From: a virus
DNA length: 64,000 nucleotides
Reading direction: 5' to 3' (one strand)
IMG/VR virus record: IMGVR_UViG_3300035698_027542
Span: 2,787 to 66,786 of that record
The notes under the pieces are model-generated. The model saw only the letters and a program-made list of their open reading frames with translations, was not told the origin of the DNA and searched no databases. Position numbers and translations under genes: made by a program. Below are positions 1 through 61,077 of this stretch, in pieces (the stretch's first letter is position 1; each line of letters begins with the position of its first letter).

Positions 1-406
1 CATAAGCAATACAACAATGAGGATTATATACAGGGAATGTTTCTTTAACATCTAATTTTCTTTTTATTTTTCCATGTAATTTTCTTAAATCATCACTAAT
101 TATTTTGACTATTACAACATCAAAATCAGGACTTTTTCTAAAATAGCCTACTTCTCCTAGTTTTACTTTTATAGATTTGTATTCTGTAAGTATTTCTTCT
201 ACTTCTTTTCTACTATTTTCACAAACTCCATAAAGAAGTGTTATATGAGTGTCTAATTCTCTCCCTTTGCCTTCCTCTTCACATAACATAGAATTAGGTA
301 TATTATTCCTCCCCCACTTTTTAATCTTACTAGCAGGCATCTGGGGAAGTCTAACAGCAATCCATCCCTTACACTCTTTCTTCTTCGCTTTTTTATACCA
401 ATTCAT
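1..406 (-). CDS. 2H phosphoesterase, Acb1/T4 gp57B-like, with MNWYKKA leader (3' end runs off the window)
   Basis: Not in the ORF track. Manual translation from ATG 406: MNWYKKAKKKECKGWIAVRLP...GRELDTHITLLYG...YNPHCCIAY; two 2H motifs (HIT, HCC). Confidence 0.8.
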   Translation of the reverse strand, partial: MNWYKKAKKKECKGWIAVRLPQMPASKIKKWGRNNIPNSMLCEEEGKGRELDTHITLLYGVCENSRKEVEEILTEYKSIKVKLGEVGYFRKSPDFDVVIVKIISDDLRKLHGKIKRKLDVKETFPVYNPHCCIAY

Positions 407-445
407 ACAAATTTATTTCGATAAAAAATAAAAAATACCTTTAAT

Positions 446-1341: not shown

Positions 1342-2163
1342 TTATATCGGAACTTCCTGCTGAACTTCATCTGGATATGTGTGATTGTTGATGATTTCCA
1401 TGTATTTGCCATAAACACCACCATACAGTTTGGGATCTGTGATCATTTTCTTATTTTTACTTATAAGACTATATAAAAGGTTTATAGCCTGTTGACGAGT
1501 CTGATAAGATAAAAGCCTATTTTTAAATTTTTGCCCATCTTCCCCCTCAAATTGTTTCCACCATTCTAACATTCTTGCACTATGACCCTTATCAGTTTCT
1601 TCCTTACTTCTAAATTCTTCATCATTAATTAATCCAGTTCTTTTCATATAATCTTTAGCAGTATTAGTGGTTATATTAAATTGTATAGCTACATTTTTTA
1701 AAGTCATTCCCTGTCCTCGAGGGGGAGGTAAATACATATCAACCATCTGCTTCCCTTTTTCCAATATGTTTGCCCTTACATCCTCCATTGATCCCCACTC
1801 TTTAATCTCTCTCCATCCATGCTCTTTATTAATTCTTCTGATAGCTGTGATAGACACTCCAAATAAATCAGCAATATTTTTATAAGTATACCCTTCTTCA
1901 ACAAGTGCTTTCATAACCTGAAGATCATCGTCAGACAAATTATTTTTATGAATATTCCCTTTATCCCTAATATTAACCCATTTATACTTATTATTTAATG
2001 CTCGAATTGAACCATGGCTGGTTCCAAACATATTTCCGATTTCTCTAGTAGAACGACCTTCTTCTAGTAATCTTTTTACTTTCTCTAATTCTTCTATGGT
2101 CCATCCTCTTTTTGCAGAACTTTTAGGCATTGCTATCTTTATATGTCTATTATACCAATTCAT
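1342..2163 (-). CDS. Multi-HTH DNA-binding protein with MNWY leader
   Basis: Three HTH-like repeats (G-x-S/T-x-x-x-IA/IG); begins MNWYNRHIKIA. Confidence 0.7.
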   Translation of the reverse strand: MNWYNRHIKIAMPKSSAKRGWTIEELEKVKRLLEEGRSTREIGNMFGTSHGSIRALNNKYKWVNIRDKGNIHKNNLSDDDLQVMKALVEEGYTYKNIADLFGVSITAIRRINKEHGWREIKEWGSMEDVRANILEKGKQMVDMYLPPPRGQGMTLKNVAIQFNITTNTAKDYMKRTGLINDEEFRSKEETDKGHSARMLEWWKQFEGEDGQKFKNRLLSYQTRQQAINLLYSLISKNKKMITDPKLYGGVYGKYMEIINNHTYPDEVQQEVPI

Positions 2164-6013: not shown

Positions 6014-6886
6014 CTATGAAGCGTTTGCATCAACCATAGTTATTTGACTAATTGCATAGTCGTTTATAACTACGATTCCAACTTCCTCGTAAATTACCCA
6101 GCCGAGTCTAAGTTTCTTTGGATCATCTGCTGGAAGCACTGTAATATCCTGGCGAATCGGAAAGGCCCCAACTGTTTCAGGACTAGCTACTACAAGAACA
6201 GTCGTGCTACCCATTCTACTTGAAACATGGATATCAGCAGTCCACAAGTGACCATAAAGGCCAGTTGTAATTATTTCTCTTTGTGTTGCTTCGTCATAGA
6301 AGTCCTTGCCAAATGTTCTGATGCTAGCATACTGGAAAGCATGAGTAACAATTTTGGCAGCTACAAGATCATGTTGCTCGATCTGTTTAAAAGCTTCATT
6401 CAACGCAGGAATAGTAAGTGTTCCGTAGTTGGTAATACTCTGTGCTGCAGGGCATGCAGTCGTAAGAGCGTTAAAGATATTGCTATCTTCTTCTTTTTGA
6501 ATTGCTTCTTTCGCCTTAATCTGAGCCCTGTCTACGATGTAGAATCTACGAGCCTTGATTTCTGCAAGACGAACTGTTGGGTTCGCGGCGATCTCGAAAG
6601 TAGGAACAAGCACTTCCTCACCTTCTTGAATTTGATCAGGTACAGCACCTCTTCGTGAAACTACCCATGCAATAGCGGCAACGTCACGCTCGTAACGAGC
6701 AAGTGCTCCCTGTGGGAGTTCGTCAACCATAAGTAGTTTTCTACCTACAGCTTGATACTCTAAAGCTCTACGGATTGGTTCTACCATTGCCTGAGCAAGG
6801 GCAGTACGACCTTCATCGCTCTCAAGAGCTTGAGAGATAACCATTTCTTTTTCTTGGTCTGTTAAACCTTTTTTATCAAAAGCCAT
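6014..6886 (-). CDS. Major capsid protein (HK97/encapsulin-like fold)
   Basis: PIRRALEYQAVGRKLLMVDELPQG, VPTFEI, GWVIYEEVGI patterns; follows protease and decoration genes; strong RBS and terminator. Confidence 0.85.
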   Translation of the reverse strand: MAFDKKGLTDQEKEMVISQALESDEGRTALAQAMVEPIRRALEYQAVGRKLLMVDELPQGALARYERDVAAIAWVVSRRGAVPDQIQEGEEVLVPTFEIAANPTVRLAEIKARRFYIVDRAQIKAKEAIQKEEDSNIFNALTTACPAAQSITNYGTLTIPALNEAFKQIEQHDLVAAKIVTHAFQYASIRTFGKDFYDEATQREIITTGLYGHLWTADIHVSSRMGSTTVLVVASPETVGAFPIRQDITVLPADDPKKLRLGWVIYEEVGIVVINDYAISQITMVDANAS

Positions 6887-7555: not shown

Positions 7556-10500
7556 TTACTTGTTGTAAGCTTTTCTCAATTGTTCCGTATCATTGTTATC
7601 AGCATCTTGATTTTGTTGTTCTAGGGTGAATAATGAAGATAACTTTTTACTTAAATCATCTTGAGCATTTCTTACACTACTTGCCTCATTTATTTGTACG
7701 GTTTGAGACATACCGTCCGAAACAGTGTCAAGTCCTTTTACATTAGCAAATATGGCTTTTTCAATATCTTGAATTTGCTTAGGCTTATAGGCTCTCAACT
7801 CACTAATTTTAGTTGGGAGATCGGCAGGTACGATATGATTTGCTTGAAGCATTCTGCCAGCTACCCTAATAGCCTCGGACTCCGAATCGCCATCAGCGAT
7901 TACTGTGCCTTTATCTTTTGTAGTTTTTTCACTATCTAATTCTTCCTGACCCTGCTGAGCATTACCTGTAAATATTTCAGGTTGATCTTTAGGAGTATCA
8001 GGTTTTGTACCTATTGTTTCTTTTTCATGACCCATCATTCCGCTATCGCTTTTAACTTCTGATTCATTTATTTCATCAGCATCGAATTTTTCTTCTTTCC
8101 CGATAGTTCCCCCATCAGAGATAGGTTGAATATCAGGATCTTTTGCTACAGGTTCTTTTGGAGCAAGTTTTTTAGCAATTCTATCAGCTAAACTATTAAC
8201 TCCTTGTTTTGCCGAACCAAAACCCTTCATATGCATTAAGTCTTCATCTATAGAAGCGAGTTCTGTTTTTCCTTGACCCTTATCGCCGCCTGTATAGGTA
8301 TTATCTCCACCAGTATAACCTGCTTCTTCCTCATGTCCCATAGTAGCATTTTCTGATGGAACAACAGGTTGAGGTTTATCTTGTGGATTCAGGTCAGTAG
8401 GTTCTTGACCCATTGTTGCATTATCTCTTGGAACGCTAGGTTTTACTGCTGAAGGAATAGTTTCATTCTCATGCCCCATTTGGCTTCCACCTTCACCTGC
8501 TGTATAGGTTCCGATATCGCTAACATCTTGAGCTTTTTCTTGAGAAATTTCTTTTTCCCCAGCGGTTTTATTTATAGCGGCAATAACACTGGAAAGATCC
8601 ATTTGTGTTTTACCGACTTTACCAACATTCTTTTCCATTATATAAGCTTCCTTAGTCTCTGTTCCTGTCCCTGCTAACATTGGGTTATTTTCTTCCACTC
8701 CAACAGGTTGTTCTTCTTCCCCTCCAACGGGTTGCCCATTGACAGTAACATTAACTTTCGAAGGTTGTTCTGGAAATCCTCTTTCTTTTTCTACAACATC
8801 TGCTCCGTTACCTTGTTCAGCATCAAATCCAACTTCCATAGGTTTCATATCTCCGCCCATTTCACCGCCCATTCCTGGATCTTCTGTGGGCTTCATATCT
8901 CCACCCATTCCTGGATCTTCCATAGGTTTCATTTCATCTAATTCTCCTGGGCCTATTTCTTCTATAGGACCTTCTCCACCAAGATCATCAATAGGACCTT
9001 CATCCCCAATAGGAAGATCTCCTACTTCTTCGCCTTCTCCCATTTCTTCTCCAATTCCTTCTTGTCCTTCTCCCTCTGCTACTTCAATAGCTTGTTCAAG
9101 TTGTTCTACTATATCAATAGGAAGTTCTAAAGTAACTGTTGCCCCATGCTCTTCTTCAAATGGATCACCTTCTTCCATTACAGGAACATCAGGATCAACA
9201 TCAGGAGTTTCATTAAATTCATCTTTCCCTGTTATTTCATCTGCTAAGAAATCTTCTCCATCTGCTACTGCGACTTTAAGAGCAGAACAAACTTCGGCTG
9301 CTTGTCTTAAGCCATAGCCAGAACGAACTTGATGAGTAATACACTCTTCATCTCCATCACAATCTGACCAATTATCAGCTAATTTAGCAGCAATCTTAGA
9401 TGTATAAATATCAGCTTTTTTCAATCGGTTGCAAATTGATACAGCAAGTGGTTTACCCTCATCTGGGCCACTCAAGCACACAGCATTTGTTCCGAATCTT
9501 CTTGCTAGTTTCTCAATACAAGATTCGATTGGGAATTTATCTCCATATCCACCATATGCCAATTTATAATCTGCAATAACTGATCCTTTTTTATCTGCTG
9601 TCTTAACAGTTCTTAAAGAACCAGCTTGCTTTAATTTAATAATTGTTTCTACTTGATCTTTAAGATCCAACTGATTGAAATCTGCTTCGGTTATTTTCAT
9701 GCTCCCAAGAGCTTTTACAAATCTTTGTTTTGCTCTATCGCAAGATGGGCAAATTGTATTTGCGGTTCTTGGAGACCATTCCCACTGAGCATAAGGTTGT
9801 TTACCATCTTTAGAAACCATATAAGAAACTTTATATTTTGTTCCTGTGTCAAGACAAATATGATTTCCATCTCCCAAATTAACAGTATTAGCCTTACCTG
9901 TGGCAGGGCTAATTTCGCCTACTTTAATTTTTGCTTCAGCTACTTTCTTAATTGCACCTGGAATTATTTTTGTAGTAGCTGCAAATTTCACTACTCTATT
10001 ATTACTAACTGAAGCTGCCGCTGGAATGTCTCCCATTTCTTGTTCCATATTACCTGGGCCTTCTCCCAAACCTTCTTCAGTTGGCATTTCAAATCCTTCT
10101 CCTTCAAAGCCTTCTTCAACTTCTTCTTCTCCACCTTCAGAAGGAGTTACACCTTGCCATTTAGTAACATTAACTTCTACTTTATAAGTCATTTCTGAAC
10201 CACAATTACCACACTTGCCCTTACCATCAAGAACATCAACATCATCGCTACCACAAACAGGGCAAATTGATCCTGGTGGTAGTGGTTCAAGATTATCAGT
10301 TAACTCTCCTTCTTCTTCTCCCATAGCTCCTGGCTCTTCAGTAAAACTTTCCATTGGGGGAGCGCCTACGCCTGGAGTTCCTGGCAATGTTGCGCCAGCA
10401 CCTGGAGCCTGACCAGCACCTCCCATGCCTCCCATTTCTCCACCCATCATCTGAGCAGTTTTTTTAATTTCTGTTTTAGCTTCTGCCATACATTCTTCTG

Positions 10501-13102
10501 TCCCTTCTTCTATCCCTTCTTCAGGGCATTCTCCATTAATATCAGCATCGATATCTTCTATAGGACCTTCTATAATATCTCCGATATCATCAGGAACAAT
10601 CTCCTCTTCTGCTCCATCCTGAATATCTATAATTAATTCTCCATTATCTCCAACTTCGATTTTGATAACAGCGGCTGCAACAGATTCATCATCTATCATT
10701 TCTTGTGCAAATTTCTTTACGCCAGCTACGAATGCTGTTTTATCAGTAATGGGAACTCCAATATCTTCCATTGTTGCTCTAATTTGATATTTTCCATCTT
10801 CTGGTTTATCTAATTCTTTAATTGCAGATTCAATAGCATCTGCCTTTGTAATAATCTTTGTATCTGATAATTTATTAATTTTATTTTCTACAATAGAATT
10901 AACTTTAGTCATTTGCGATTCATTATTAATAATATGCCCGACAGTATCAAAAACATCTTCTGCTTTCATCCCGAACTGAGCATTAGAAGCTGCCGATACG
11001 ATCAAAGCATCAATAGTTGAAATTGTATTTTTAGAAGCTGTTTTAGCAAAATAAGAAGCATTAGAAGCAATTGCCTCTCTATTATCTTTCTTATGAGGTA
11101 AGGAATTAAGAACTGCTAAAAAAGAAACTTTTGCTTTTGTATCGGTATCATCATTAATAATAGAAGCTATTTTTTTAATCTCATCTGGAGATTTGCGATA
11201 AGTAGAAATCATATCTGCTAGAATATTAGTAGCAGTTTTAACAAGAGAAACGGAATAATCTTTATTAGCCCATCTCTTCAAACCATCTGTCATTGAGATA
11301 TTTCTCAACTGGTCTTCTGTGATAGTCTCAAGATTACCTACAAATTTATGATTACTAAGAAGATCCCTAATTTGAGCTTGGGTAATAGATTCTGTATAAT
11401 CATCTGGGAGATTACCAGCAATATCTCTACTGAAATCATCCCACTGTTTCTCTGTAATAACATCTGAGTAATCATTAAAATGGATTACCGCTTCTCCTAA
11501 AGCGCTTTGAGTCTTTAACTGATCTTCTGTAATTGTTTCATACGTACCTGTTCTCACTTGTGGACTATCAGAAGTCGTATCATTACTTTGCTCGGAACCG
11601 CCTATTTGTTCTTTACTTTCAGTTATCCCTTCATAAACTTCCTCTGTTCTTGGATGAAGAGTCTCTTCTTCTTTTATAAGCTGTTTCTCAGTAATGACTT
11701 CAAGATTCTCTGTCCCAGCCGCCACTTTTGTAGCTTTATTATCAGTAGCCATTTTTGCTCCTATATTTAATTGAGAATTAATATTTTTATTTAAATTACG
11801 TAGACTCTCTTCTAAAGAATCTACTTTACTAATTAGTTTTTGACTTATTCGTGAAAAATCCTCTATTTTTCTTGAAGAATTTTTCGGCATTGTCACATTT
11901 CCTAGATCTCCAAGACCAGAAGTTTGGCTTCCAGCGGATGGTAATTCTTGCTGAGCTGCCATTTGTTCTGGAGGAAGCGGTGCTGGGAATTGATCAGCAA
12001 CTATTGGTTGATCTCCATCTGCAGCCGTAACTTGTGGAGAAGGTAATCCCCCATAACCCATTTCTGTCAATTCATCAAAAATGCCTTGTACGTCTGCCAT
12101 AGCCTTAACAAGCTCACTAACGTACTCCATCGAGACATTTTCTTTTTGTTTTAACATACTTTTAACGACAGTTTCCATTTCTGTCATACTATTTTTAAGT
12201 GACTCAAGCTCTTGTACCCCACCCAACTTGATAAGCATCTCATTATCTTCTTCTTGCAGATGTGCTTCTTTAATAAGATTCCCTATTGTTTTATTAAAAG
12301 ATGCTACTTTTTTTTCTAAAGTAGGAACATTAAGAACACATTTTACCCCACAATCCTGACAAGCTGGATTAACTACAAAACTATTTTCAATAAACTTTAG
12401 CCCGTAGTTATGTTCAAAAATAGCCTGATCTGCATGTTTGAGAGTTTTGATGTTATCTTTCGCGCTCCCGCAAACAGGGCATTTTTCGTCCTTATCTGTT
12501 GGGCTGTTATGATAAGCACATTTCAAGTCTCCAGTATATTTCCTATTCTTTCTATTTGATACATGAGAACAATAATCTTCTGATGTATTTGCCTTGTTAT
12601 GGCAAACAGAGCAGATACTAGATTCCACAGAACATCCCATTGACGTTCCTGTTATATATCCTTCTTCTAGTCCTCTTGCAAGTCTTGGATAAGCTACTTT
12701 ATCCACTCTCCCAATTATATAAACTCCTCCTTCTTTTGGGTCATACCACGAATGGACACATTCTCCTCTTGCCTTCTCTACATCATCATTTTGATGATTG
12801 GTAAAGAGAGGAACGCCTACGAAAGAAGATGTTGCTAATTTTAATTCTTTTTCATTAAAGGCATCTCCATTATCATTAGGTTCATCTTTTTTAATTGCAA
12901 ATATTTTAATATAGAGATGGTCTGGGTGTTCTTTAGTAGCTTCTTTTAAATTAAAACCTCCTAGATCTTCTCCTTCTATATTAATAGAAGCAGTTTTTAT
13001 TTGATCGGGAAAATTATAAATATCCCAACCTTCTCCTGTTGGTTTATTAAGTGCTGTAACTTTGCATTTATGTGAAAACCTTGCTATTTTATACATTGCC
13101 AT
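7556..13102 (-). CDS. Giant prohead protease-scaffold fusion (~1850 aa)
   Basis: N-terminal herpes/HK97-type protease motifs (NDNGDAF, FTNH, TSMGC, ENSFVVNPA) with CxxC inserts; long acidic low-complexity body; start likely MAMYK at 13102. Confidence 0.75.
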   Translation of the reverse strand: MAMYKIARFSHKCKVTALNKPTGEGWDIYNFPDQIKTASINIEGEDLGGFNLKEATKEHPDHLYIKIFAIKKDEPNDNGDAFNEKELKLATSSFVGVPLFTNHQNDDVEKARGECVHSWYDPKEGGVYIIGRVDKVAYPRLARGLEEGYITGTSMGCSVESSICSVCHNKANTSEDYCSHVSNRKNRKYTGDLKCAYHNSPTDKDEKCPVCGSAKDNIKTLKHADQAIFEHNYGLKFIENSFVVNPACQDCGVKCVLNVPTLEKKVASFNKTIGNLIKEAHLQEEDNEMLIKLGGVQELESLKNSMTEMETVVKSMLKQKENVSMEYVSELVKAMADVQGIFDELTEMGYGGLPSPQVTAADGDQPIVADQFPAPLPPEQMAAQQELPSAGSQTSGLGDLGNVTMPKNSSRKIEDFSRISQKLISKVDSLEESLRNLNKNINSQLNIGAKMATDNKATKVAAGTENLEVITEKQLIKEEETLHPRTEEVYEGITESKEQIGGSEQSNDTTSDSPQVRTGTYETITEDQLKTQSALGEAVIHFNDYSDVITEKQWDDFSRDIAGNLPDDYTESITQAQIRDLLSNHKFVGNLETITEDQLRNISMTDGLKRWANKDYSVSLVKTATNILADMISTYRKSPDEIKKIASIINDDTDTKAKVSFLAVLNSLPHKKDNREAIASNASYFAKTASKNTISTIDALIVSAASNAQFGMKAEDVFDTVGHIINNESQMTKVNSIVENKINKLSDTKIITKADAIESAIKELDKPEDGKYQIRATMEDIGVPITDKTAFVAGVKKFAQEMIDDESVAAAVIKIEVGDNGELIIDIQDGAEEEIVPDDIGDIIEGPIEDIDADINGECPEEGIEEGTEECMAEAKTEIKKTAQMMGGEMGGMGGAGQAPGAGATLPGTPGVGAPPMESFTEEPGAMGEEEGELTDNLEPLPPGSICPVCGSDDVDVLDGKGKCGNCGSEMTYKVEVNVTKWQGVTPSEGGEEEVEEGFEGEGFEMPTEEGLGEGPGNMEQEMGDIPAAASVSNNRVVKFAATTKIIPGAIKKVAEAKIKVGEISPATGKANTVNLGDGNHICLDTGTKYKVSYMVSKDGKQPYAQWEWSPRTANTICPSCDRAKQRFVKALGSMKITEADFNQLDLKDQVETIIKLKQAGSLRTVKTADKKGSVIADYKLAYGGYGDKFPIESCIEKLARRFGTNAVCLSGPDEGKPLAVSICNRLKKADIYTSKIAAKLADNWSDCDGDEECITHQVRSGYGLRQAAEVCSALKVAVADGEDFLADEITGKDEFNETPDVDPDVPVMEEGDPFEEEHGATVTLELPIDIVEQLEQAIEVAEGEGQEGIGEEMGEGEEVGDLPIGDEGPIDDLGGEGPIEEIGPGELDEMKPMEDPGMGGDMKPTEDPGMGGEMGGDMKPMEVGFDAEQGNGADVVEKERGFPEQPSKVNVTVNGQPVGGEEEQPVGVEENNPMLAGTGTETKEAYIMEKNVGKVGKTQMDLSSVIAAINKTAGEKEISQEKAQDVSDIGTYTAGEGGSQMGHENETIPSAVKPSVPRDNATMGQEPTDLNPQDKPQPVVPSENATMGHEEEAGYTGGDNTYTGGDKGQGKTELASIDEDLMHMKGFGSAKQGVNSLADRIAKKLAPKEPVAKDPDIQPISDGGTIGKEEKFDADEINESEVKSDSGMMGHEKETIGTKPDTPKDQPEIFTGNAQQGQEELDSEKTTKDKGTVIADGDSESEAIRVAGRMLQANHIVPADLPTKISELRAYKPKQIQDIEKAIFANVKGLDTVSDGMSQTVQINEASSVRNAQDDLSKKLSSLFTLEQQNQDADNNDTEQLRKAYNK

Positions 13103-13118
13103 TTTTATTTTTCCTTGT

Positions 13119-13493
13119 TTACCATTCTTTATCATTATTTTCTAAATCTTGAGTTATATTAGAATAATGCTCTTGAATTTCTGAATATACATTGTTTTTT
13201 AAATCTTTATTTTCTGGGCTACTAAGAAAAGATGTTAGATCTTCTTTACTAACAACATCTGTTGCTAAAAACTCAATTTCTCCATTTGCATCATTAACCC
13301 AGTAAGAAATATTAACTTCAACATCTGAAGGAGAAATTGCTCCTTCTTCTATAATTGGTATAGCCGTAGAAAATTGACCTTTCATCGAAGGATTTTTTTT
13401 ATAATATCTATTTAAAGTTCCTGGAGAAAACATAGGAGGAGCATATGCTTCCTTCTCTATTTTCTTATAATTTTTAGTTTTTAATATTTTCAC
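13119..13493 (-). CDS. Hypothetical protein with MKILKTKNYK leader
   Basis: ORF; leader shared with neighbours. Confidence 0.65.
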   Translation of the reverse strand: MKILKTKNYKKIEKEAYAPPMFSPGTLNRYYKKNPSMKGQFSTAIPIIEEGAISPSDVEVNISYWVNDANGEIEFLATDVVSKEDLTSFLSSPENKDLKNNVYSEIQEHYSNITQDLENNDKEW

Positions 13494-13502
13494 TATAAAT
13501 AA

Positions 13503-13790
13503 TTACCTTTGTGGATTAGTATGTAAACTACCTATTTCTTTTACTTTTGCATCTTGTTGTTCGAAAGAAAAACCTCTACTTTTTAATTCCTGTCTATAAA
13601 CAGATGCTTGATCAAAATATTTACCTTGATTTGAGCTAACTCGAGAAGCTTCAATAGCATCACTTAAAGCACCTAATAAAGATTCTGTATCCATCTGTTT
13701 TGCCTTTTGTCTCTCATGTTGAAAATTAACCTTATAAGGATTCATATCTCCAAATGTATCAGCAAATTTTTTAGTTTTTATAATTTTCAT
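13503..13790 (-). CDS. Hypothetical protein with MKIIKTKKFA leader
   Basis: Start moved to ATG 13790 (TAATG coupling with the upstream zinc-ribbon gene). Confidence 0.65.
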   Translation of the reverse strand: MKIIKTKKFADTFGDMNPYKVNFQHERQKAKQMDTESLLGALSDAIEASRVSSNQGKYFDQASVYRQELKSRGFSFEQQDAKVKEIGSLHTNPQR

Positions 13791-13957
13791 TATAATTTTT
13801 CCCCGCAAGAAGGACAAAATTTCATTTTAAAAAGAACACAAGTCCCACAAGAAGCACAGCAGAGCTTACTATCTTCTTTCTCCTGTTCTTCTACTTGTTC
13901 TTTTCTTACTCCAAACGTATAATTTTTATTATCTTTTTGACCACACTTAAGCATCAC
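13790..13957 (-). CDS. Small zinc-ribbon protein
   Basis: Manual translation ...LCCASCGTCVLFKMKFCPSCGEKL; AAGGAG RBS. Confidence 0.65.
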   Translation of the reverse strand: MMLKCGQKDNKNYTFGVRKEQVEEQEKEDSKLCCASCGTCVLFKMKFCPSCGEKL

Positions 13958-13967
13958 AATTATCTCC

Positions 13968-14219
13968 TTAAATTAGTTGACTCTGTTGTTGACCTGATGG
14001 TACTGGTCTCCCCAAAGCCCCCAATACGTAATCTTTTACTTGTGCTATTTGTTCTGTAGAAAAATCAGGAAATTCTTGACTAATAGCCTGATACATATCT
14101 CCCCCACTATGAACAACCTGTTGAATATTTTGCAACTTGGCACTCCATATCTGAGGGTCATATTCAGAACTTTTCATTATTTCTCTGTCTTGGTACTTTT
14201 TACTTTTTATAATCTTCAT
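13968..14219 (-). CDS. Hypothetical protein with MKIIKSKKY leader
   Basis: ORF with RBS and upstream AAGG-N17-AGAATA motif. Confidence 0.65.
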   Translation of the reverse strand: MKIIKSKKYQDREIMKSSEYDPQIWSAKLQNIQQVVHSGGDMYQAISQEFPDFSTEQIAQVKDYVLGALGRPVPSGQQQSQLI

Positions 14220-14944: not shown

Positions 14945-15361
14945 TTATCCCTTAACGTGCCTTGGAATTTCGATAGTGGCTAATTGTTCAACAGTATAAT
15001 TAGGAGCACCTTTAGGAAATGGAATACCCCACTTTTCAGAAGCGTGGCTAAGAGCAGCTACTGAACTGGTGAAATATTCACCACTTGGAGCATATACTTT
15101 TGCTTTGGGGTCATCTGGCAACTTCTTAATCCCAGAAAAGAATCGTTTTGCCCCATCTCTAGTTAAAGAAGGTCCCATAACCACAAAATAATCAGAGTTT
15201 GTAGTATAGTCGTGACCTTCCCATCTTATATAAGATAATTGACCAAGCTGTTTGTCAAATCTCTTTTTTAATTTTTGAGATCTTTCATGGTACCCTGGTT
15301 TCCAATCAATCCCTCTATCTCTTATTCTTTTTCTGCCCGAAAATTTAAGTAGTGTCTCCAT
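14945..15361 (-). CDS. Hypothetical protein (head module)
   Basis: 138-aa ORF directly downstream of portal. Confidence 0.6.
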   Translation of the reverse strand: METLLKFSGRKRIRDRGIDWKPGYHERSQKLKKRFDKQLGQLSYIRWEGHDYTTNSDYFVVMGPSLTRDGAKRFFSGIKKLPDDPKAKVYAPSGEYFTSSVAALSHASEKWGIPFPKGAPNYTVEQLATIEIPRHVKG

Positions 15362-18300
15362 TTTCTATATTCCCTATATATAAAATTTGTCCGTGTGGGA
15401 TAGATGTCCTACTACAGCCTATCTTTCCTTTAGAAAGACAATATTCATACAAAGGGTTCGTCCCGTCTCCTTCTACAGAAGCTGTTTTTATTAAAGCTCC
15501 ATCTTCTGCTTTTTTTCTACTTTTGCTTGCATCTGCCATATGGCTAACAATTGTATCTCTTACTGCATCTATATTTTCATTTACAGCAGCCTCATTAAAT
15601 CTCAACACTCTCCAACCCACATTAGCTAATTTATTATCTCTCTGAAGATCTCTTTGCTGAAAATCCTCTCTCTCATGCCAAATTGCTCCATCTACTTCTA
15701 TCCCAACTCCGATTTTTGGATAAGCAAAATCAATAGCATAAGGTCTTGACTCTCCTGGAACTTTCACCTGATACTGAGCAAATAAATCATGAGGAGTATT
15801 CATGTCCGAAAGAGTCCTAAACATTTTTTGTTCTAACTTTGTTAGTTTAATCATTTTTGGAGGAAGAGTTTGTTCTTCTTCTTGTTTATTTTTAGAACCT
15901 CTTTTCCCTATTTTTGGCAACTCTCCAGAAGCGGCCGCTCCCATAGATGGTGCTCCCCCAGCACCTCCCATTGGAGCGCCTCCCATGCCTCCCATTGGAG
16001 CACCCCCCATTTCACCGCCTGGAGCGCCGCCTGGCATACCTCCACCCATGTCTCCACCTGGCATACCTCCAGCCATACCTCCACCCATATCTCCACCCAT
16101 CGGGCCTCCACCCATTGGAGCGCCGCCCATTGCATCGCCGCCCATCCCCGCTACCATCCCATTTGCCTGGGCCATAATTTGTTCTTCTCTTATTTTCTCA
16201 ACTTCTGAATCATAATCTAAATCCATTTCTTCAAGAACTGTTTGTGCTGAAACCATTCCTTTATCATACATTTGCATTAAGGTTTGTATTCTATTTGTTT
16301 TATCTCTAAGCTGTAAATCATTCCATGTAAGTTTAGGATATAAATAAGCTATTTCTTCAATCTCTTTAGATTCCTCTTCATCTATAAACCCCTGCATCAT
16401 AGCCACAGGTTTAAAAATATTAATTTCTACCCATGTTTTTAATTTATTTCTCCAGTTATCTAATCTTCTAATAAGAACTTCAATACCAACTTGTGCCGAA
16501 TTGCCCTGAACAGTTACTACTCCATTTCTCATAGTAACAAATAATTCATAAGGAACAGAAAAACAATATACATTATCGTTATAAGGAACTCTTGTTATCT
16601 CTTTCCCTGCATATTTTTTAGATTTAGAATAAAGAGTAGGAGTTCTTCCCTTAAACCCCTTAGAAATATATACAACATATTGTTGATGCCTAGTTATATA
16701 TTCATGTCCATTTTTATTAAAATATTTTTTATTCTTAGATTCTTTTTTATTATATTCTCTAATTTTAGTTACATAGCCACATTTGAATGCTATTTCTGCA
16801 AAATCTTCTGCAAGTTGTTTACTAGAAGTATAATAAGATTGACCTTTAACTTTTCTATTCTCTCCAATATGATTATGAACACAACCATCTCCATTAATCA
16901 TAGCTTCTAATACTATCTCTAAACATTCAGGTGTTAGATTTTTTACAAATGGAGAAAGTTTTTTATTAATAAATCCTTTTCCAAAATTATTACTAAGATA
17001 TAATGCTAAATCTGGCTTATAAGTAGATACATGCGTTTTTCCTACATAATGTTTCTCAAACATGCTATCAAATAATTCTTCAATATCTTCTCTTGCCTCA
17101 CTATCTCTATTTTGACTAATTCCAACAACTGTTTGTTTTCTTGTTCTATTTTTTCTTTTTTCTTTAGTAGTCCATCCCTCAGAAACATAGTATCCAACCA
17201 TTTTACAATAGTCATAAATAGAATACTTTTCATCTCCTATTTGAATTGATTTTTGATATTCTCCTTCATAACCATCTACTGCTCCTATAAATTTAGATCT
17301 TGAACGAATTTCATCCGCTCTCGTAAATTTGTAATCATTAGATCCTCTTTTAGCACTCCACATCCTATGATTAGGAGTTACTAGAATATCTATTTTATCA
17401 GTGTTAAAGTGAACCATCTCTCCATCATAATCATAAACCATTTTCTTATATGGAAGATGATATTCTATTTTTTTAGTCTCAGGATTATAACAAGCGATCT
17501 TATCTTTCTTAGGATCTATCTCCCGATAACTTTTAAAGCCAGAATCACAAAGAGTTTTGGTATCAGCACTTAGGCACGTATATCCAGCCATTTCCCCATT
17601 TAATATAGCTTGATTAAGCATAAGACCATCAAGAATTTCTTTTCCAACTTGTTCTATTTCTGCTGTAATATTATGAATTTTTCCTGTTGCTCCATACCAC
17701 TCATAATCAAAAGCGTGATGTGTAACAATAGTCAAATTAGGGTCATTAGCAACTGCCGCTAGTTGATTCTGAACGTCTTGCAAATCAGTATCAGTTGCAG
17801 GTCTATCTTTATCCCCCACCTTTACAACCCTAACAGGAAGAATTAATCTTTCAGCAACAATCCAGTTAGCAGTCATAATTTTTGTTTTATAAGCTAAAAC
17901 TGTAAATAACCTTTGGAGCATTGATGTCCCATATGTCCCATAATCACTAGCATTATGTTTTAAATGACTAATACATCTATCTGACAATCTAACAGGCTGA
18001 CCAGACGAAACCGCTCTAATCAATCCTGCTGGCAAACTATCATATATACTTCTTGGTTCTTTTCTTGAAACAATAAGTTTTAATTCTTCATCTGGAACTA
18101 GATAATACTCTGGATTACTTGCTAAGGGATTATCTCTGACATCCAGATAATCAGGATTCATCAACTTGATACTTTTAAAAGTTCCATCAGCATGATTACA
18201 TAATTCTCCATCTGCTTTTCTTCCCTTCCCTCCACAATTAGGACATTCTATTTCTGCAAATGGGAAGACATCACCAATAAGAAAATATTCATGGCTAATA

Positions 18301-18731
18301 GCATTAAGCTTTTCTGGAAGATCCAGTTTCTCTGATAACCTCTCATAAAATTTTAAGATTTTCTTAGATTTACATTCTAATTTAAAACCATTCATAGAAA
18401 AATTAGAATAAAAATCTACTCCTGCTGCAACCTTAGGTTCGTTCATGTAGTAAAAACGAGACCATTGCATTATCTCTCTTCTACGACTTGCTATCTGCCA
18501 ATTCTGAGGTGTATGTAACGGGGAAAAGAACATGGGTTGCGTCATTGCAACTCCAGCTCCTGATCCTGCAAATTGTGCATTTTTTGTAATTGGAATATTG
18601 ACTACTGTAGAATTAGGCCAACCGCTTTTGCTAACTGGAGCATTAGCAGCAGGTGCATTATAAGCTCCCGATGCAGCAGCAAGTCTTTGTTTATTTTTTG
18701 GTGAATTATCTGGTAAAATAAATTTTGCCAT
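15345..18731 (-). CDS. Portal protein with intein, Gly/Met-rich linker and C-terminal DUF559/Vsr-like nuclease domain
   Basis: Portal-type motifs (EYFLIGDVF, MNPDYLDV, YGTSML); position in head module; IDFAY...IEVDG..WH...RD..L...GWRVLRF at the C-terminus. Confidence 0.75.
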   Translation of the reverse strand: MAKFILPDNSPKNKQRLAAASGAYNAPAANAPVSKSGWPNSTVVNIPITKNAQFAGSGAGVAMTQPMFFSPLHTPQNWQIASRRREIMQWSRFYYMNEPKVAAGVDFYSNFSMNGFKLECKSKKILKFYERLSEKLDLPEKLNAISHEYFLIGDVFPFAEIECPNCGGKGRKADGELCNHADGTFKSIKLMNPDYLDVRDNPLASNPEYYLVPDEELKLIVSRKEPRSIYDSLPAGLIRAVSSGQPVRLSDRCISHLKHNASDYGTYGTSMLQRLFTVLAYKTKIMTANWIVAERLILPVRVVKVGDKDRPATDTDLQDVQNQLAAVANDPNLTIVTHHAFDYEWYGATGKIHNITAEIEQVGKEILDGLMLNQAILNGEMAGYTCLSADTKTLCDSGFKSYREIDPKKDKIACYNPETKKIEYHLPYKKMVYDYDGEMVHFNTDKIDILVTPNHRMWSAKRGSNDYKFTRADEIRSRSKFIGAVDGYEGEYQKSIQIGDEKYSIYDYCKMVGYYVSEGWTTKEKRKNRTRKQTVVGISQNRDSEAREDIEELFDSMFEKHYVGKTHVSTYKPDLALYLSNNFGKGFINKKLSPFVKNLTPECLEIVLEAMINGDGCVHNHIGENRKVKGQSYYTSSKQLAEDFAEIAFKCGYVTKIREYNKKESKNKKYFNKNGHEYITRHQQYVVYISKGFKGRTPTLYSKSKKYAGKEITRVPYNDNVYCFSVPYELFVTMRNGVVTVQGNSAQVGIEVLIRRLDNWRNKLKTWVEINIFKPVAMMQGFIDEEESKEIEEIAYLYPKLTWNDLQLRDKTNRIQTLMQMYDKGMVSAQTVLEEMDLDYDSEVEKIREEQIMAQANGMVAGMGGDAMGGAPMGGGPMGGDMGGGMAGGMPGGDMGGGMPGGAPGGEMGGAPMGGMGGAPMGGAGGAPSMGAAASGELPKIGKRGSKNKQEEEQTLPPKMIKLTKLEQKMFRTLSDMNTPHDLFAQYQVKVPGESRPYAIDFAYPKIGVGIEVDGAIWHEREDFQQRDLQRDNKLANVGWRVLRFNEAAVNENIDAVRDTIVSHMADASKSRKKAEDGALIKTASVEGDGTNPLYEYCLSKGKIGCSRTSIPHGQILYIGNIENGDTT
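16500..17576 (-). mobile_element. Intein (359 aa) with LAGLIDADG domain, in portal
   Basis: YT/CLSADT ... VTPNHRM ... GYYVSEG ... AMINGDG ... VYCFSVP ... VQGN/S. Confidence 0.9.
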
Positions 18732-27260: not shown

Positions 27261-27830
27261 TTAATTAAAATGAGGGTTATTAAGCTTTGTTGGCTCATGA
27301 ATAGGAATTTTTCTTCCGATACCTTCCTCTAACTGTCTTAAAGCCCCTTCTCTTCCCTGACTCGCATGATATAGTTCTCCTATCCCCTTAGGAAATGAAT
27401 CTTCTTTGCTTACGCCCGTACTTTTTCTATATTCTCTTGCAAGTCTTTCTCTTAATTTATCTCTTATATACTTATCACCAATCCAATCTATCCATGCCTT
27501 AATAACCTCCACTCTTCTTAAAGTCTCTGATCCACCTTCTTGCCTTCTTTTTTCACTCTCATCTCTTAATTTATTCCCTTCTTCAAATATTTGATCTCGT
27601 TCTAATTCATTTTGCCTAGCATGTGGCAAAGAATAAAATGGCACTTTATCAGTAATAGTTGGTCTGAAACGTGATCTATTTCTATTTCTTGGCTGTATTC
27701 TCTTAGTGTACATAGTATCTGGAACTTTTTTAATTGTATCTACCCATTCATCTTCCGTCTCAGGAGAATAAACACTACCCTCAAAAGTAGATTCTATCTT
27801 TTTATAATTTGATGTTTTTATTATTTTCAT
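27261..27830 (-). CDS. Hypothetical protein with MKIIKTSNYK leader
   Basis: 189-aa ORF. Confidence 0.65.
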   Translation of the reverse strand: MKIIKTSNYKKIESTFEGSVYSPETEDEWVDTIKKVPDTMYTKRIQPRNRNRSRFRPTITDKVPFYSLPHARQNELERDQIFEEGNKLRDESEKRRQEGGSETLRRVEVIKAWIDWIGDKYIRDKLRERLAREYRKSTGVSKEDSFPKGIGELYHASQGREGALRQLEEGIGRKIPIHEPTKLNNPHFN

Positions 27831-27989
27831 TTATAAATTTCTAAGATAATTTACAAGATTAACTCTTTTCTTTCCATTAGATGACACCACATCAACAATA
27901 ATTTTATTAAAATTATATCCTTTTCTCCAAGATACTAAATCCTTACTTGTCATGCTTCTAGCAAATTTTTCTGTTATAATTTCTCTCAT
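27831..27989 (-). CDS. Small protein (52 aa) with MREIITEKFA leader variant
   Basis: Manual translation; ATGA overlap with the upstream HNH gene; GAGG RBS. Confidence 0.55.
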   Translation of the reverse strand: MREIITEKFARSMTSKDLVSWRKGYNFNKIIVDVVSSNGKKRVNLVNYLRNL

Positions 27990-30689: not shown

Positions 30690-31148
30690 TTACAATTTTA
30701 AATTTTTAATTAACGTATCTTTTTTAATTCTTTTAAAAATATTACCCTTACTATCTTGCATATTATGAGGACCAACATCTACGTTATCTAACCTAACCGA
30801 CTCAGCTTGACCTCCTATTGGCAATTTATCGTCATCAGTATTAAACTCGTCTTGAGCTACAAACCTATCTCCTAGTCCGTCATGACTATCTCCACCATCA
30901 TCCATTAGAACTGCTTCCCCTGGAATTTTACCATGAATCCTTTCATAATCAGAAGTCTCTTCAAGATCTGAGTCTTGACTTATCCCTCTTGGATATCCTG
31001 GCCTTTTATTCCCACCAAATTCAGGTTTAGCATTAACCAAACTTCTAGGATCTTTTTTATGATTTGAAGAGGGAGGACGAAGACCTTCGCTATAATCGTC
31101 CATTAGAGGAACCCCATGATTCCAAGATTTTTTAAACCAGTTACCCAT
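30690..31148 (-). CDS. Hypothetical protein with MGNWFKKS leader variant
   Basis: 152-aa ORF. Confidence 0.65.
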   Translation of the reverse strand: MGNWFKKSWNHGVPLMDDYSEGLRPPSSNHKKDPRSLVNAKPEFGGNKRPGYPRGISQDSDLEETSDYERIHGKIPGEAVLMDDGGDSHDGLGDRFVAQDEFNTDDDKLPIGGQAESVRLDNVDVGPHNMQDSKGNIFKRIKKDTLIKNLKL

Positions 31149-31150
31149 AA

Positions 31151-31390
31151 TTATCTCTTTATTGGTTCAAACTGAATATCAAACTGAATATTTGACTCGA
31201 TGGCAGTATGCAGAGAAGCATCTCCGCTTGCTTTATCCAATACCGTTTTTAACACTCTCTCTGCTGTATTTTTTTCTTTTTCATCTTCTATGTCTTGAGG
31301 AACCCACACATCAGCCTCTACACTAAAAGACCACCTTGATTTAGAATTCTGATTCTTTTGCGGATAGTTCCTACCAAACCAATTAGGCAT
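31151..31390 (-). CDS. Hypothetical protein with MPNWF leader variant
   Basis: 79-aa ORF. Confidence 0.6.
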   Translation of the reverse strand: MPNWFGRNYPQKNQNSKSRWSFSVEADVWVPQDIEDEKEKNTAERVLKTVLDKASGDASLHTAIESNIQFDIQFEPIKR

Positions 31391-57185: not shown

Positions 57186-57260
57186 TTTAAGATACTCCTT
57201 TCATATTTATATCGGCATTTTTTGCAGGATTTATTAAAATTTTGACGAAATTATATAATT

Positions 57261-57800
57261 ATGAATTGGTATAAAAAAGCATCTTATATAGCTTATCATG
57301 GAACTCCTAAAGATTTCCAAGATTTCTCTTATGAATATCTTGGAACTAATGGGACTGCGGAAGGTTTTGGTTTTTATTTTACTAGTGATAAAAATATAGC
57401 TGAAGGATATGCTGAAGGGGGCATATTAAAAAAAGTCAATCTTGATATTAAAAAACCATTAAACCCTATAATTTTTAGTATTTCTAAACCAGAATTTGCT
57501 ATATTTTTAAAAACATTAGATCCTACAGGAGAAGATTATTTATCAAATTGGGGAGAATCTAACTATGAGGGATATGATAAAATTTTAAACACTGCCGTTG
57601 AAGGAGAGTTTTCTGGATCAGATAATGATGTAGATTTAATATCAGGAGTGATACAAGCAGCAGGTGGAAATGCAGAGCGCATATATAAAATACTAAAACA
57701 AACACTAGGTTATGATGGTATTATTGTTAATAAGCCATCATGGGGTGGCAATCAAATTATTTACATAGTATTTGATAATAATCAAATTAAGAATATATAA
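57261..57800 (+). CDS. ADP-ribosyltransferase-like protein (ART-PolyVal type) with MNWYKKA leader
   Basis: AYHGT...F..F.....G...G.GFYFT....A.GYA...L.IKKP...GYDGII......YIVF...QIK. Confidence 0.75.
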   Translation: MNWYKKASYIAYHGTPKDFQDFSYEYLGTNGTAEGFGFYFTSDKNIAEGYAEGGILKKVNLDIKKPLNPIIFSISKPEFAIFLKTLDPTGEDYLSNWGESNYEGYDKILNTAVEGEFSGSDNDVDLISGVIQAAGGNAERIYKILKQTLGYDGIIVNKPSWGGNQIIYIVFDNNQIKNI

Positions 57801-57801
57801 A

Positions 57802-58173
57802 ATGAATTGGTATAAAAAAGCAAAACAGACACCTGAATTAGAAGCAATCTTCGAAAAATGGAGAGACCAAGGAGTAACTCTTTATGTTTTTGAACAAATT
57901 GATAAAATTCTTGTTGATTCTCTTATAGTTCCAAAAGAAAAAAGAAAACAAGGAATAGGAACTCAAATAATGCAAGAATTAACAAATTATGCTGATAAGA
58001 TTGGAAAAAGATTAGAATTAAGTCCAGGTCAAAAAGATGATTATCATGGGACTACTTCCAAAGGAAGATTAATTAATTTTTATAAAAGATTTGGACTTAT
58101 AGAAAATAGAGGTAGAAACAAAGATTTTACAACGAATAGGACTATGTATAGGGAACCAAATGAATTGGTATAA
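57802..58173 (+). CDS. GNAT acetyltransferase with MNWYKKA leader
   Basis: VPKEKRKQGIGT acetyl-CoA motif; L.NFYKRFG; start moved to ATG 57802. Confidence 0.8.
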   Translation: MNWYKKAKQTPELEAIFEKWRDQGVTLYVFEQIDKILVDSLIVPKEKRKQGIGTQIMQELTNYADKIGKRLELSPGQKDDYHGTTSKGRLINFYKRFGLIENRGRNKDFTTNRTMYREPNELV

Positions 58174-58549
58174 AAAAGCACAAAATCAAAAAACATTAGA
58201 AGAAAATCCTCATTATATGGATATAGGACATCCCCAAGAACAACCAGAAATTGAAAGTCCTATGTTTTTATGGATATCAGATTTAGCAGGAAATAATTTT
58301 CATAAAACAGAAGCAGATCCAGAATATGACCATAGTGGATTCATACATGATATAGGATTTGACAATGCTTCTACAATTAATGGAAGATTTGATGCAAATA
58401 AAAATGTTGTCTCTTTGTATATTGATTCTGAAATTGCTACCACTATAAGATATATCCCCAATCGTCTTATAAGTAGATTACAACAGGAATTTGGTAATAA
58501 TATTACAATAATAGATTATTCAAGAAACCCTCCAAAAATAGTAGTTTAA
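58160..58549 (+). CDS. Hypothetical protein with MNWYKKA leader
   Basis: 129-aa ORF (YMDIGH, GRFD). Confidence 0.65.
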   Translation: MNWYKKAQNQKTLEENPHYMDIGHPQEQPEIESPMFLWISDLAGNNFHKTEADPEYDHSGFIHDIGFDNASTINGRFDANKNVVSLYIDSEIATTIRYIPNRLISRLQQEFGNNITIIDYSRNPPKIVV

Positions 58550-58556
58550 GGATAAT

Positions 58557-59096
58557 ATGAATTGGTATAAAAATATATTGACAAGTGATTATAGAAATGA
58601 TATAATTCCAAATATGGATAAAAAGATGATCATAATGAGGGGAACACCTGCCTCAGGAAAAAGTTTTTTAGCTAATCAATTAGTAGGAGAAGCAGGAGAA
58701 ATCTTCTCAGCAGATGATTTTCATACAAATCCAGAGACTGGAGAATATAATTGGAAACCAGAAAATGTAAAAAGATCTCATCAGTGGAACCATGAAAGAG
58801 TTAATAAGGCTATAGAAGAAGGAATCTCTCCTATTGTTATCGATAATACCCATATTAAACTATGGGAACTTAAAGCATTAAAACCTCTTGTTCAAAAAGC
58901 GCAAACACAAGGTTATGATATAAGAATAGAAGAACCCAATCCCAACTGGTATCACTGGAACACTGCTTTTGACCCTAAGGCCCTATATGAAAGAAACAAA
59001 GAAACACATAATGTTCCATTTGAATCAATTGAAAAAATGGTTAAAAACTATCAACCAGATATTACTGTTGATGATATTTTAAAAGAAGAAAATTAA
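58557..59096 (+). CDS. P-loop kinase (AAA_33/N4BP2 polynucleotide-kinase-like) with MNWYK leader
   Basis: IMRGTPASGKS, SADDF, VIDNTH, RN..HNVP. Confidence 0.8.
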   Translation: MNWYKNILTSDYRNDIIPNMDKKMIIMRGTPASGKSFLANQLVGEAGEIFSADDFHTNPETGEYNWKPENVKRSHQWNHERVNKAIEEGISPIVIDNTHIKLWELKALKPLVQKAQTQGYDIRIEEPNPNWYHWNTAFDPKALYERNKETHNVPFESIEKMVKNYQPDITVDDILKEEN

Positions 59097-59704
59097 ACTT
59101 TTATTGTTTGAGAAAGAATATTTTTTATTTTAATTTCTTCTGTTTTGTACCATCCTGTTGGCATTCCACCGAAACATTGATCTAAATAAAAACAATAATG
59201 GTTATACCAATTTTTCCGAATATGTTCTGATAATTTATTTACTTTTCTTTTTTCTGTGCCAGTAGTTATATTAGCATATTTTTCTGCTTCTTTATTAACA
59301 TCTTCTGATTCTTTCTTACTTGTACAAATAGGTCCCCAATGAACCAACTTCCTATCTCTAGAAATAGCCCAACAATCAACATTATATTTTGCAAAAGCTA
59401 AAAACTGTTTACTAAATTTTATTGCCAACGGGTCATAACCTTGATTTTCTAAATAACTATCAGAACAATAACTCTTAATTATTTTATTATCTATAGATAA
59501 TAGATCTCCTGAGTGAAAAGATGTTTTAACCAAAACGTCTATATCTTTTATCCTCACATTCGGCTTGTCTATATTTTTAGAATATGATCCCCACAAATGA
59601 ACAGATTTCACTCCCCTTACGCCCTTAAGAGAAGCTATAGTTTCTTTAATATGTGGTTGAACATCTTTTATTTTAGGCATACATTTTTCGTACCATGAAC
59701 TCAA
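59093..59704 (-). CDS. Pol-beta superfamily nucleotidyltransferase with MSSWYEK leader variant
   Basis: LWGSY........DIDV. Confidence 0.65.
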   Translation of the reverse strand: MSSWYEKCMPKIKDVQPHIKETIASLKGVRGVKSVHLWGSYSKNIDKPNVRIKDIDVLVKTSFHSGDLLSIDNKIIKSYCSDSYLENQGYDPLAIKFSKQFLAFAKYNVDCWAISRDRKLVHWGPICTSKKESEDVNKEAEKYANITTGTEKRKVNKLSEHIRKNWYNHYCFYLDQCFGGMPTGWYKTEEIKIKNILSQTIKV

Positions 59705-60735: not shown

Positions 60736-60806
60736 GCCTTGACCTCATTGGCTGAGAAAGGTTTTTCCGAAAAACCTTCATAAGGGTTCGAGTCCCTTTC
60801 AAGGCA
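60736..60806 (+). tRNA. Non-canonical tRNA-like RNA, anticodon CCG (Arg)
   Basis: Acceptor GCCTTGA/TCAAGGC; T arm AAGGG-TTCGAGT-CCCTT; 7-bp anticodon stem. Confidence 0.6.
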
Positions 60807-60885
60807 GTAAAAGGTTTTTCTTGCATTTAGAATAATATATGATATAATGAAGAAAATAATATTTTTTAATTAGTGGAGACCTAAA

Positions 60886-60987
60886 ATGGGTAAAAGAACA
60901 GGTGTAAAACCTCATACAAGAAAAGTAAAAACAGCAACAGGATCGACAAAAACCATAAAAGTTAAAAGATCTGTTAGAAATAAGTAA
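60886..60987 (+). CDS. Small basic protein (33 aa)
   Basis: MGKRTGVKPHTRKVKTATGSTKTIKVKRSVRNK; GGAG RBS; upstream TTGCAT-N16-TATAAT promoter. Confidence 0.55.
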   Translation: MGKRTGVKPHTRKVKTATGSTKTIKVKRSVRNK

Positions 60988-60991
60988 ATAA

Positions 60992-61062: not shown

Positions 61063-61077
61063 TGTCCAAAAATCACT

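Follow-up and report, generated by a model that had tools for sequence, protein, structure and literature searches.

We analysed a stretch of 64,000 nucleotides (the window, whose positions are used below), which comprises bases 2787-66786 of the 66,786 bp virus record IMGVR_UViG_3300035698_027542 of IMG/VR, and found that several of its otherwise unrelated genes begin with one and the same short peptide, here called the leader. The leader, with the consensus M-N-W-Y-K-K-A-Q, is a short, unstructured N-terminal peptide that is portable among proteins, conserved as a peptide and positioned outside the folds of the proteins that carry it, and it is confined to one subgroup of phage-G-like megaphages. 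Since it is portable, conserved, unstructured and restricted to one group of viruses, it must be read by a common partner. The reading that we rank first, to which we give somewhat less than an even chance, is that this partner belongs to the assembling phage head and that the leader proteins would be loaded into the virion.

The original prediction had reported that six genes of the window share the start ATGAATTGGTATAA, and this count was confirmed. There are six perfect matches, at 406(-), 2163(-), 57261(+), 57802(+), 58160(+) and 58557(+), compared with a mean of 0.10 per dinucleotide shuffle and no instance of six matches in 100 shuffles. All six represent the first ATG of an open reading frame (ORF), with 2 to 19 open codons 5' of each, and a seventh leader gene (MNWYKRSRF, 62 aa) is present at 2634(-) of the genome, 152 bases ahead of the window start. 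On the minus strand, the leader genes encode a 2H/Acb1-like phosphoesterase of 174 aa (1..406, truncated by the window start; full gene at genome 2668-3192; leader MNWYKKAKKK; Pfam 2_5_RNA_ligase2, 1.8e-7; Acb1, 2e-5, under the cut-off) and a multi-helix-turn-helix (HTH) protein of 273 aa (1342..2163; MNWYNRHIKIA; Pfam Sigma70_r4, 1.3e-11, and HTH_7). On the plus strand, they encode an ART-PolyVal ADP-ribosyltransferase of 179 aa (57261..57800; MNWYKKAS; Pfam, 1.2e-17, scoring 65.4 bits where the cut-off is 31.2), a GNAT acetyltransferase of 123 aa (57802..58173; MNWYKKAKQ; 3.9e-6), a protein of 129 aa with a Y-x-D-I-G-H motif after its leader (58160..58549; MNWYKKAQ) and a P-loop kinase (AAA_33) of 179 aa (58557..59096; MNWYKNIL; 3.8e-13). 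The 129-aa protein had no match in Pfam or PHROGs, and a search of a wider protein atlas gave no usable match. The leader genes of the window carry one domain each within 123-273 aa, and not several effector domains per polypeptide; the bodies of the seven leader genes of the record are mutually unrelated, and two of them belong to no family. Read in the other two frames, the 14-mer itself contains TGA and TAA; the GNAT gene (57802-58173) stops at a TAA within the leader of the 58160 gene, and leader-gene arrays elsewhere overlap by ATGA (L006).

The functions proposed for these bodies largely stood, as the ART, GNAT, 2H, kinase and multi-HTH assignments were all recovered with Pfam and PHROGs. 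The label that failed was that of a nucleotidyltransferase (NTase) for a variant at 59093..59704(-) (TTG start, SSWYEK, 203 aa, with a promoter-like motif 57 nt upstream), which matched nothing in Pfam or PHROGs; it has a visible GS...DID motif, which we take to be NTase-like. Two further variants that had been reported, MGNWFKKSW (152 aa) and MPNWFGRNY (79 aa) at 30690..31390(-), are present in the structural module, whereas the membership of all three, at 59704(-), 31148(-) and 31390(-), in the leader family is doubtful. The orthologue of the MGNWF gene (31148-) in a 548 kb relative starts with MSNWF.

Based on its capsid identities and on the low CheckV completeness of leader-carrying fragments, the record is assigned to the phage G lineage as a 67 kb fragment of a megaphage of ~0.5 Mb. 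Its capsid protein shares 94% identity with the one encoded by a complete viral record of 547,943 bp (G004), 73-81% with its counterparts in four records of 370-494 kb, and 54% with gp27 of Bacillus phage G (497,513 bp), the closest cultured phage, while leader-carrying fragments of 43-64 kb were estimated by CheckV to be 9-14% complete. Relatives of the capsid protein at E <= 1e-10 number 936, the best 120 of which are 78-96% identical, and to judge from sequence matches this megaphage group is common worldwide.

In pooled viral DNA, we identified 73 distinct leader proteins, defined as those starting with M-[NSKR]-W-[YF], and their bodies fell into 61 clusters (blastp 1e-5, residues 13 onward), in agreement with the earlier statement that the bodies are non-homologous. 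Many leader genes are arranged in tandem arrays, with a maximum of five consecutive genes. When viral contigs were scanned for every possible coding of MNWYKKA, 26 stretches were recovered, and 26 of 31 matches are at ORF starts. The identical scan of cellular genomes (596 Gb) revealed 83 matches, 10 of them at ORF starts; these ten include a Sel1-type repeat at the edge of a contig and five matches at loci with G+C >= 0.5. The remaining cellular matches are mostly within Sel1-type repeats (..NWYKKAAEQG..AQ..LG.MY), and a few cellular matches, among them L038 with its three or four leader genes, probably come from wrongly binned pieces of phage. NWYKKAA indeed opens a helix in many cellular Sel1-type repeat proteins, but there the words are internal, in tandem and followed by EQG...AQ..LG.MY, whereas the phage leader is N-terminal and followed by unrelated sequence; the Sel1 profile had no match in the Pfam-scanned leader proteins or in five related phage genomes. 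In addition, the N-termini of a related proteome, which had been set beforehand as a check, were counted without bias: of all the 4-mers that open the 1471 candidate starts of G004, MNWY was the commonest (n=12), and the other frequent 4-mers belonged to ordinary paralogue families. The body types recognized with Pfam and PHROGs include ART-PolyVal, GNAT, 2H/Acb1-like, kinase, cREC, helicase and SLT lysin, among them a membrane-anchored SLT lysin and an anti-CBASS-like 2H enzyme, and in one set of 20 leader proteins, 16 had no match in Pfam. The leader does not resemble a signal peptide or lipoprotein signal, as a globular domain directly follows it, and a transmembrane-like stretch comes after the leader in just two leader proteins.

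Conservation in the leader is confined to its eight positions. Among the 73 proteins, positions 5 to 8 are K in 57, K in 42, A in 46 and Q in 29, and no position past Q8 is conserved; W3 is found in 73/73, although positions 1 to 4 were set by the selection regex and are not independent. Among 67 ART homologues, 44 start with M-x-W-[YF], 6 carry the motif some residues in, and 17 lack it, the latter including fragments and seven full-length proteins of <=52% identity that open with xVYHGS, the first strand. With W3, Y4 and K5 fixed, the leader is retained in ART orthologues of as little as 58% identity, and the replacements observed are conservative (N to S, R or K; Y to F), with W never lost. 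Most 2H homologues align only from query residue 16 to 18. In the AlphaFold2 model of the ART protein, which has a mean predicted local distance difference test (pLDDT) score of 91.8 and a pLDDT of 70 in its first 10-residue block, residues 1-7 form a low-confidence coil and strand 1 begins at residue 8, so that the leader is predicted to be a free 7-residue overhang outside the fold. The leader codons, in turn, are AAT (35) or AAC (29) for Asn, TAT (59) or TAC (10) for Tyr, and GCA (31), GCT (11) or GCG (3) for Ala at position 7. As the codons vary between genomes while the peptide is constant, selection acts at the peptide level. The 61 body clusters, the variable codons and the homologues from other lineages without the leader all support the earlier proposal of a portable peptide tag.

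The leader was also found within fused proteins. A 713-aa protein of G004, starting with MSWYKKAQ, is an in-frame fusion with an internal HKTNWYKKSQLSTIDVP ahead of a C-terminal copy of the neighbouring 124-aa gene; another fusion (P0301) starts with MNWYRKS, carries NSNWYKEAKQ ahead of a 2H domain and has RRNWYK at its cut end; and three others (P0317, P0326 and L016) likewise retain the motif at junctions without a start codon. Because the motif persists inside these fusions, a role of the leader that depends on the start codon or on initiating translation is argued against.

A second, longer leader, M-[KR]-x-I-x-[TS]-x-[KN]-[YF], opens six unrelated genes of the structural module (for example, MKIIKTKNYKKIE, MKIIKTKKFADTF and MRIISSSKFAEQF). 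It is present in three small genes between the portal and protease genes at 13119..14219(-) (MKILKTKNYKKIE, MKIIKTKKFADTF and MKIIKSKKYQDRE), in two genes at 27261..27989(-) (MKIIKTSNYKKIE, 189 aa; MREIITEKFARSM, 52 aa) and at a further locus at 22695-25055(-) of the window, and in G004 it is found in genes at 18107(-), 29818(-) and 30321(-). Among 41 kinase homologues with a body identity of 64-77%, the first leader is present on 29, the second (MKNIITKNYKTAQ and others) on 8 and neither on 4, and since both occur on kinase homologues, the two leaders are interchangeable on one enzyme. A short contig (L014) with MKIIKTEMYKKAQ combines the prefix of the second leader with the YKKAQ core of the first. 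On either side of the capsid gene of another genome, G008, genes with MKIIK.. and with M[NSK]W[YF]K.. starts are mixed in one array, and gp13, gp17 and gp38 of phage G (L169) start with MKRLI.K. Within 416000-445000 of G008 (L173 and L174), about a dozen of some 29 genes start with MK[ILV][IVM][KR], with MNWYK, MKWFK and MSWYK interspersed. Ten tandem genes at 88790-93800(+) of G004 start with MKIR.GF[VI]SNSS.SSF and then diverge; they may be paralogues whose first 16 residues are fixed, or bearers of a third shared leader.

Regarding gene context, leader genes are located downstream of the capsid gene in three of six genomes (this record, G004 and G008, but not G006, G007 and G009), and the large gene beside the pair of which 406(-) is a member contains a phage cement domain. 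The original prediction had further proposed a promoter motif shared by leader and head-module genes, and this proposal survived only in modified form. The literal string AAGG-N17-VGAA occurs 12 times, with 10.7 expected, and is not enriched. A two-part motif, AGG[AT][AT]T[ACT][AT]-N11-14-[GA]AA[AT][AT], which was refined after inspection of the upstream regions and is partly fitted to these data, occurs 25 times compared with 15.3 +/- 4.4 in Markov shuffles; as this count is only mildly raised, the argument rests on the location of the sites. Eleven of the 25 sites are intergenic, with a same-strand gene starting 25-95 nt further on (g1, g2, g3, g12, g18, g26, g36, g41, g49, g78 and g82); these genes include g12 (capsid) and other structural genes as well as the leader genes g2, g3 and g78 (57261). 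The site before the 57261 gene, AGGATTTA-N13-GAAAT, is positioned at 57226..57252(+), 35 nt upstream, and that before the 406(-) gene at 414..440(-), 34 nt upstream and just past a terminator-like hairpin at 450-475. In G004, 3 of 18 two-part motif sites precede leader genes, which make up ~2% of its genes. The motif is thus a candidate promoter-like element common to leader and structural genes.

A different signal was observed inside the kinase gene, where the linker contains a perfect sigma-70-type promoter, TTGACA-17-TATAAT (12/12), at 58578..58606(+), with an in-frame ATG (residue 21) at 58617, about 10 nt downstream. The kinase orthologue of G004 has TTGAAA-16-TATAAT (11/12) at the same position, though the peptide differs, and two kinases with a short linker lack the internal promoter. 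This arrangement suggests, as a lead, that a host-type promoter could yield a leader-less kinase from a nearly leaderless mRNA. Perfect sigma-70-type promoters also occur in two units just upstream of leader genes, at 450-642(-) and 2220-2372(-), each consisting of a promoter, ~130 nt in which hairpins resemble tRNA anticodon arms (GTTGGCTTAACCAAC), and a terminator; TTTTTTTATGTCCAAAAAT from these units recurs before the 61112 gene (compare 60880-61111(+)), and the ORF listed at 2166-2324(-) probably does not represent a gene. In neither unit, be it upstream of 406(-) or of 2163(-), did Rfam or ARAGORN recognize an RNA family.

According to the head-loading model, a leader ahead of a protein would mark that protein for one common partner, preferably within the head as it assembles (in the prohead core or inside the shell), and leader enzymes made late would enter the virion and reach the next cell together with the DNA, in the manner of the T4 internal proteins and Alt, which rely on a capsid targeting sequence. 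We rank this model first because of the polyvalent-type payloads, which include the anti-CBASS-like 2H enzyme and the membrane-anchored SLT lysin, the capsid-side context, the shared motif, the second leader and the precedents of T4 and P1; the capsid-adjacent genes, the shared motif and the leader swap on the kinase favour it without proving it. As for the payloads, phage polyvalent proteins have been predicted to be packaged in the capsid and delivered with the DNA (PMC5512222), and the earlier identification of ART and GNAT as polyvalent-protein domains was supported, by the 65.4 bits of the ART-PolyVal match and by the finding of GNAT and 2H domains inside giant proteins or profiles. The GNAT protein aligns to positions 2713-2797 of a 3925-position PHROG profile, and 2H and GNAT domains recur within proteins or PHROG profiles that are 1000 to 7768 aa long, the upper value applying to 2H. 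The repertoire of ART-PolyVal, GNAT, 2H phosphoesterase and kinases is the same as that described for polyvalent proteins (Iyer et al., 2017; PMC5512222). However, a polyvalent protein is one giant polypeptide, whereas here the domains are encoded by separate small genes with their own leaders, and a few fusions keep leaders at their junctions.

The closest precedent is the T4 internal proteins' capsid targeting sequence, described as the only thing that these proteins have in common (PMC3012670). Like the leader, the sequence on IPI-III is a short N-terminal peptide on diverse and partly anti-defence proteins (PMC3012670), and seven genes of the phage analysed here similarly share a short N-terminal peptide on unrelated proteins. 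The T4 sequence carries even foreign proteins into the prohead core; the protease then removes it, and the tagged proteins are found in the head. The two cases also differ in phage lineage and prohead protease family, and the tagged families are far more numerous here (61 clusters). Encapsulin cargo-loading peptides offer another parallel, as a short terminal peptide brings unrelated enzymes to the inner face of an HK97-fold shell; these peptides are usually C-terminal, and the compartment contains no DNA. In P1, the first 30 residues of DarB are reported to suffice for packaging, including that of a reporter (PMC9024508), but this signal of ~30 residues is on one very large anti-restriction protein, as opposed to 7-8 residues on many small proteins.

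Several observations weigh against head loading. The two-part motif may not be late and may not even be a promoter, and the leader is kept within fused proteins, where a terminal tag would be needless. The number of leader copies (ATGARYTGGTAY) is 13, 9, 3, 1 and 1 in five large genomes, and is thus uneven across genomes with the same capsid protein; in two genomes, the leader is solely on a helicase of ~1000 to 1200 aa, which fits poorly with a core head-loading system. UvrD-type helicase and HTH regulator bodies are not obvious cargo. Moreover, the leader is absent from the genome of phage G, the sole cultured relative, where the three pattern matches are ORFs of only 9-16 codons. The many enzymes that proteomics has reported in phage G particles (bioRxiv 10.1101/2024.12.16.628780) speak in themselves for head loading, but none of them carries the leader, and since phage G lacks the leader, these data cannot be carried over to the viruses analysed here.

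A further point against head loading concerns processing, as no Glu-type protease site was found in or after the leader. The original prediction had proposed cleavage at K-x-A, for which we found no support: conservation runs on to Q8, strand 1 of the ART protein begins at residue 8, no I-T-E-like site is present, and nothing in the sequences indicates removal of the tag. The likely protease of this phage is part of a 1859-aa protease-scaffold-like protein at 7556..13135(-), of which residues 74-210 match a head maturation protease (phrog_18299, 1.5e-10). Beyond ~210 residues, this protein is long, acidic and of low complexity, and its residues ~480-615 contain four [VT]-I-T-E-[KD]-Q-[LW] repeats, which are candidate sites for cleavage by its own protease domain. 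The leader contains no [VT]ITE[KD]Q, the sole repeated candidate site of this protein. The 52-aa protein encoded at 27831-27989(-) has a similar I-I-T-E-K at its start.

A more elaborate version of head loading, which we put forward tentatively and consider rather unlikely in full, describes a modular address kit, in which a captured gene that gains MNWYKKAQ or MKIIKT..YKKAQ would be loaded and injected, an internal host-type promoter would provide an untagged form once infection has taken place, and the whole would replace giant polyvalent proteins.

The alternative that survives best, albeit an improbable one in our estimate, holds that the leader is a docking peptide for a non-head partner, such as a phage hub or chaperone that assembles separate effectors in a single complex, a host factor or a cell site, and that the leader proteins act in the producing cell instead of being injected. 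Docking explains the portability, the peptide conservation and the free overhang equally well, and it accommodates the variation in copy number under one capsid protein, the helicase and HTH bodies, and the leaders kept at internal module junctions. It leaves unexplained, however, the capsid-side position, the motif shared with structural genes and the second leader in the head module, and no candidate hub was found, there being no Sel1-type protein in five genomes. A phage-encoded receptor of the Sel1/TPR type was considered and rejected, as PF08238 had no match in these 5 genomes.

We give little credence to the possibility that the leader is an N-terminal degradation tag for a host or phage AAA+ protease, which would keep potentially harmful enzymes short-lived. 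A free polar-aromatic-basic N-terminal overhang would suit such a tag, as would the Met-basic-hydrophobic-hydrophobic start of the second leader, and the internal promoter of the kinase would then give a stable leader-less version alongside an unstable tagged one. The leader presumably also resembles the published ClpX N-terminal motif classes. On the other hand, its invariant Trp and narrow consensus are stricter than any of the degenerate degrons known to us, and degradation explains neither the retention of the leader inside fusion proteins nor the head-gene context.

Equally improbable, in our view, is that the leader represents a DNA or RNA cassette, either an A/U-rich translation start or a stretch of homology for swapping array genes, with the peptide as a by-product. 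The synonymous choice for Asn is uniform within a genome, being AAT in 7/7 leaders of this record and AAC in 6/6 and 4/4 in two others, when the pooled bodies use AAC for 24% of Asn, and this uniformity suggests that the leader spreads locally as DNA. Shine-Dalgarno-like words precede 19/73 leader genes compared with 41 to 45% of others, a modest difference based on crude gene calls, and the stops of the 14-mer in both other frames, the upstream gene that ends inside it and the tight tandem arrays would also be expected of a cassette. But the codons change between genomes under a constant peptide, with conservative replacements (including K to R), TGG is invariant though not A/U-rich, and the motif survives in fusions that lack a start codon there. 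Finally, although the tandem arrays and the uniform codons within genomes point to local duplication or recombination, we consider it very improbable that the shared start has no function and is simply left over from common descent or from repeated duplication of gene starts, given that W3, Y4 and K5 are fixed while the ART bodies diverge to 58% identity and that the motif spans genomes whose capsid proteins differ by up to 27%.

The record also contains genes of the structural module. The major capsid protein (290 aa; phrog_2522, 3.1e-64) is encoded at 6014..6886(-), the portal protein (1128 aa, with LAGLIDADG and DUF559 inserts; PHROGs and Pfam) is encoded at 15345..18731(-), and a large terminase and a ribonucleotide reductase were also identified (PHROGs and Pfam). 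In the portal protein (15345-18731(-)), LAGLIDADG_3 occupies residues 607-684 and a DUF559/Vsr-like nuclease domain is C-terminal, and a 611-aa protein at 3981-5816(-) has LAGLIDADG_3 at its start and half of a DNA methylase at its end; the insertions in both could represent inteins or inserted homing endonucleases, and a related helicase (L020) matches Intein_splicing. Near the leader-gene cluster, we identified tRNA-Arg(CCG) at 60736-60806(+), a weak tRNA match at 60992-61062(+) and tRNA-Gln(CTG) at 62067-62137(+). One source assigns the ART protein of the 548 kb relative (P0003) to an Asgard archaeal metagenome-assembled genome, a binning that is probably wrong, and a bacterial host fits the sigma-70-type promoters, the Shine-Dalgarno words and the lipobox protein at 55907-56821(-).

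The prediction that the leader was undescribed agrees with our literature search, in which no description of it was found in print. The capsid-targeting literature covers T4, P1, SPN3US and others, and the leader is absent among the matches listed; a term search of a 2026 jumbo-phage review likewise gave no match for targeting sequence, packaging signal or propeptide. T4 and P1 already exemplify the principle; what would be new, if the sorting function holds, are the sequence, the lineage, the scale, the exchange of two leaders and the possible two-promoter arrangement. If the leader is a loading or sorting tag, delivered effectors in uncultured megaphages could be listed from sequence only, including many families to which no function is assigned so far, and an 8-residue portable tag could help to pack foreign proteins into very large capsids. 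The T4 solution of one address for many payloads would then have arisen independently, with another head protease and at a much larger scale. Even with a partner outside the head, a Trp-invariant N-terminal motif on 61 body clusters would point to an undescribed recognition system in these megaphages.

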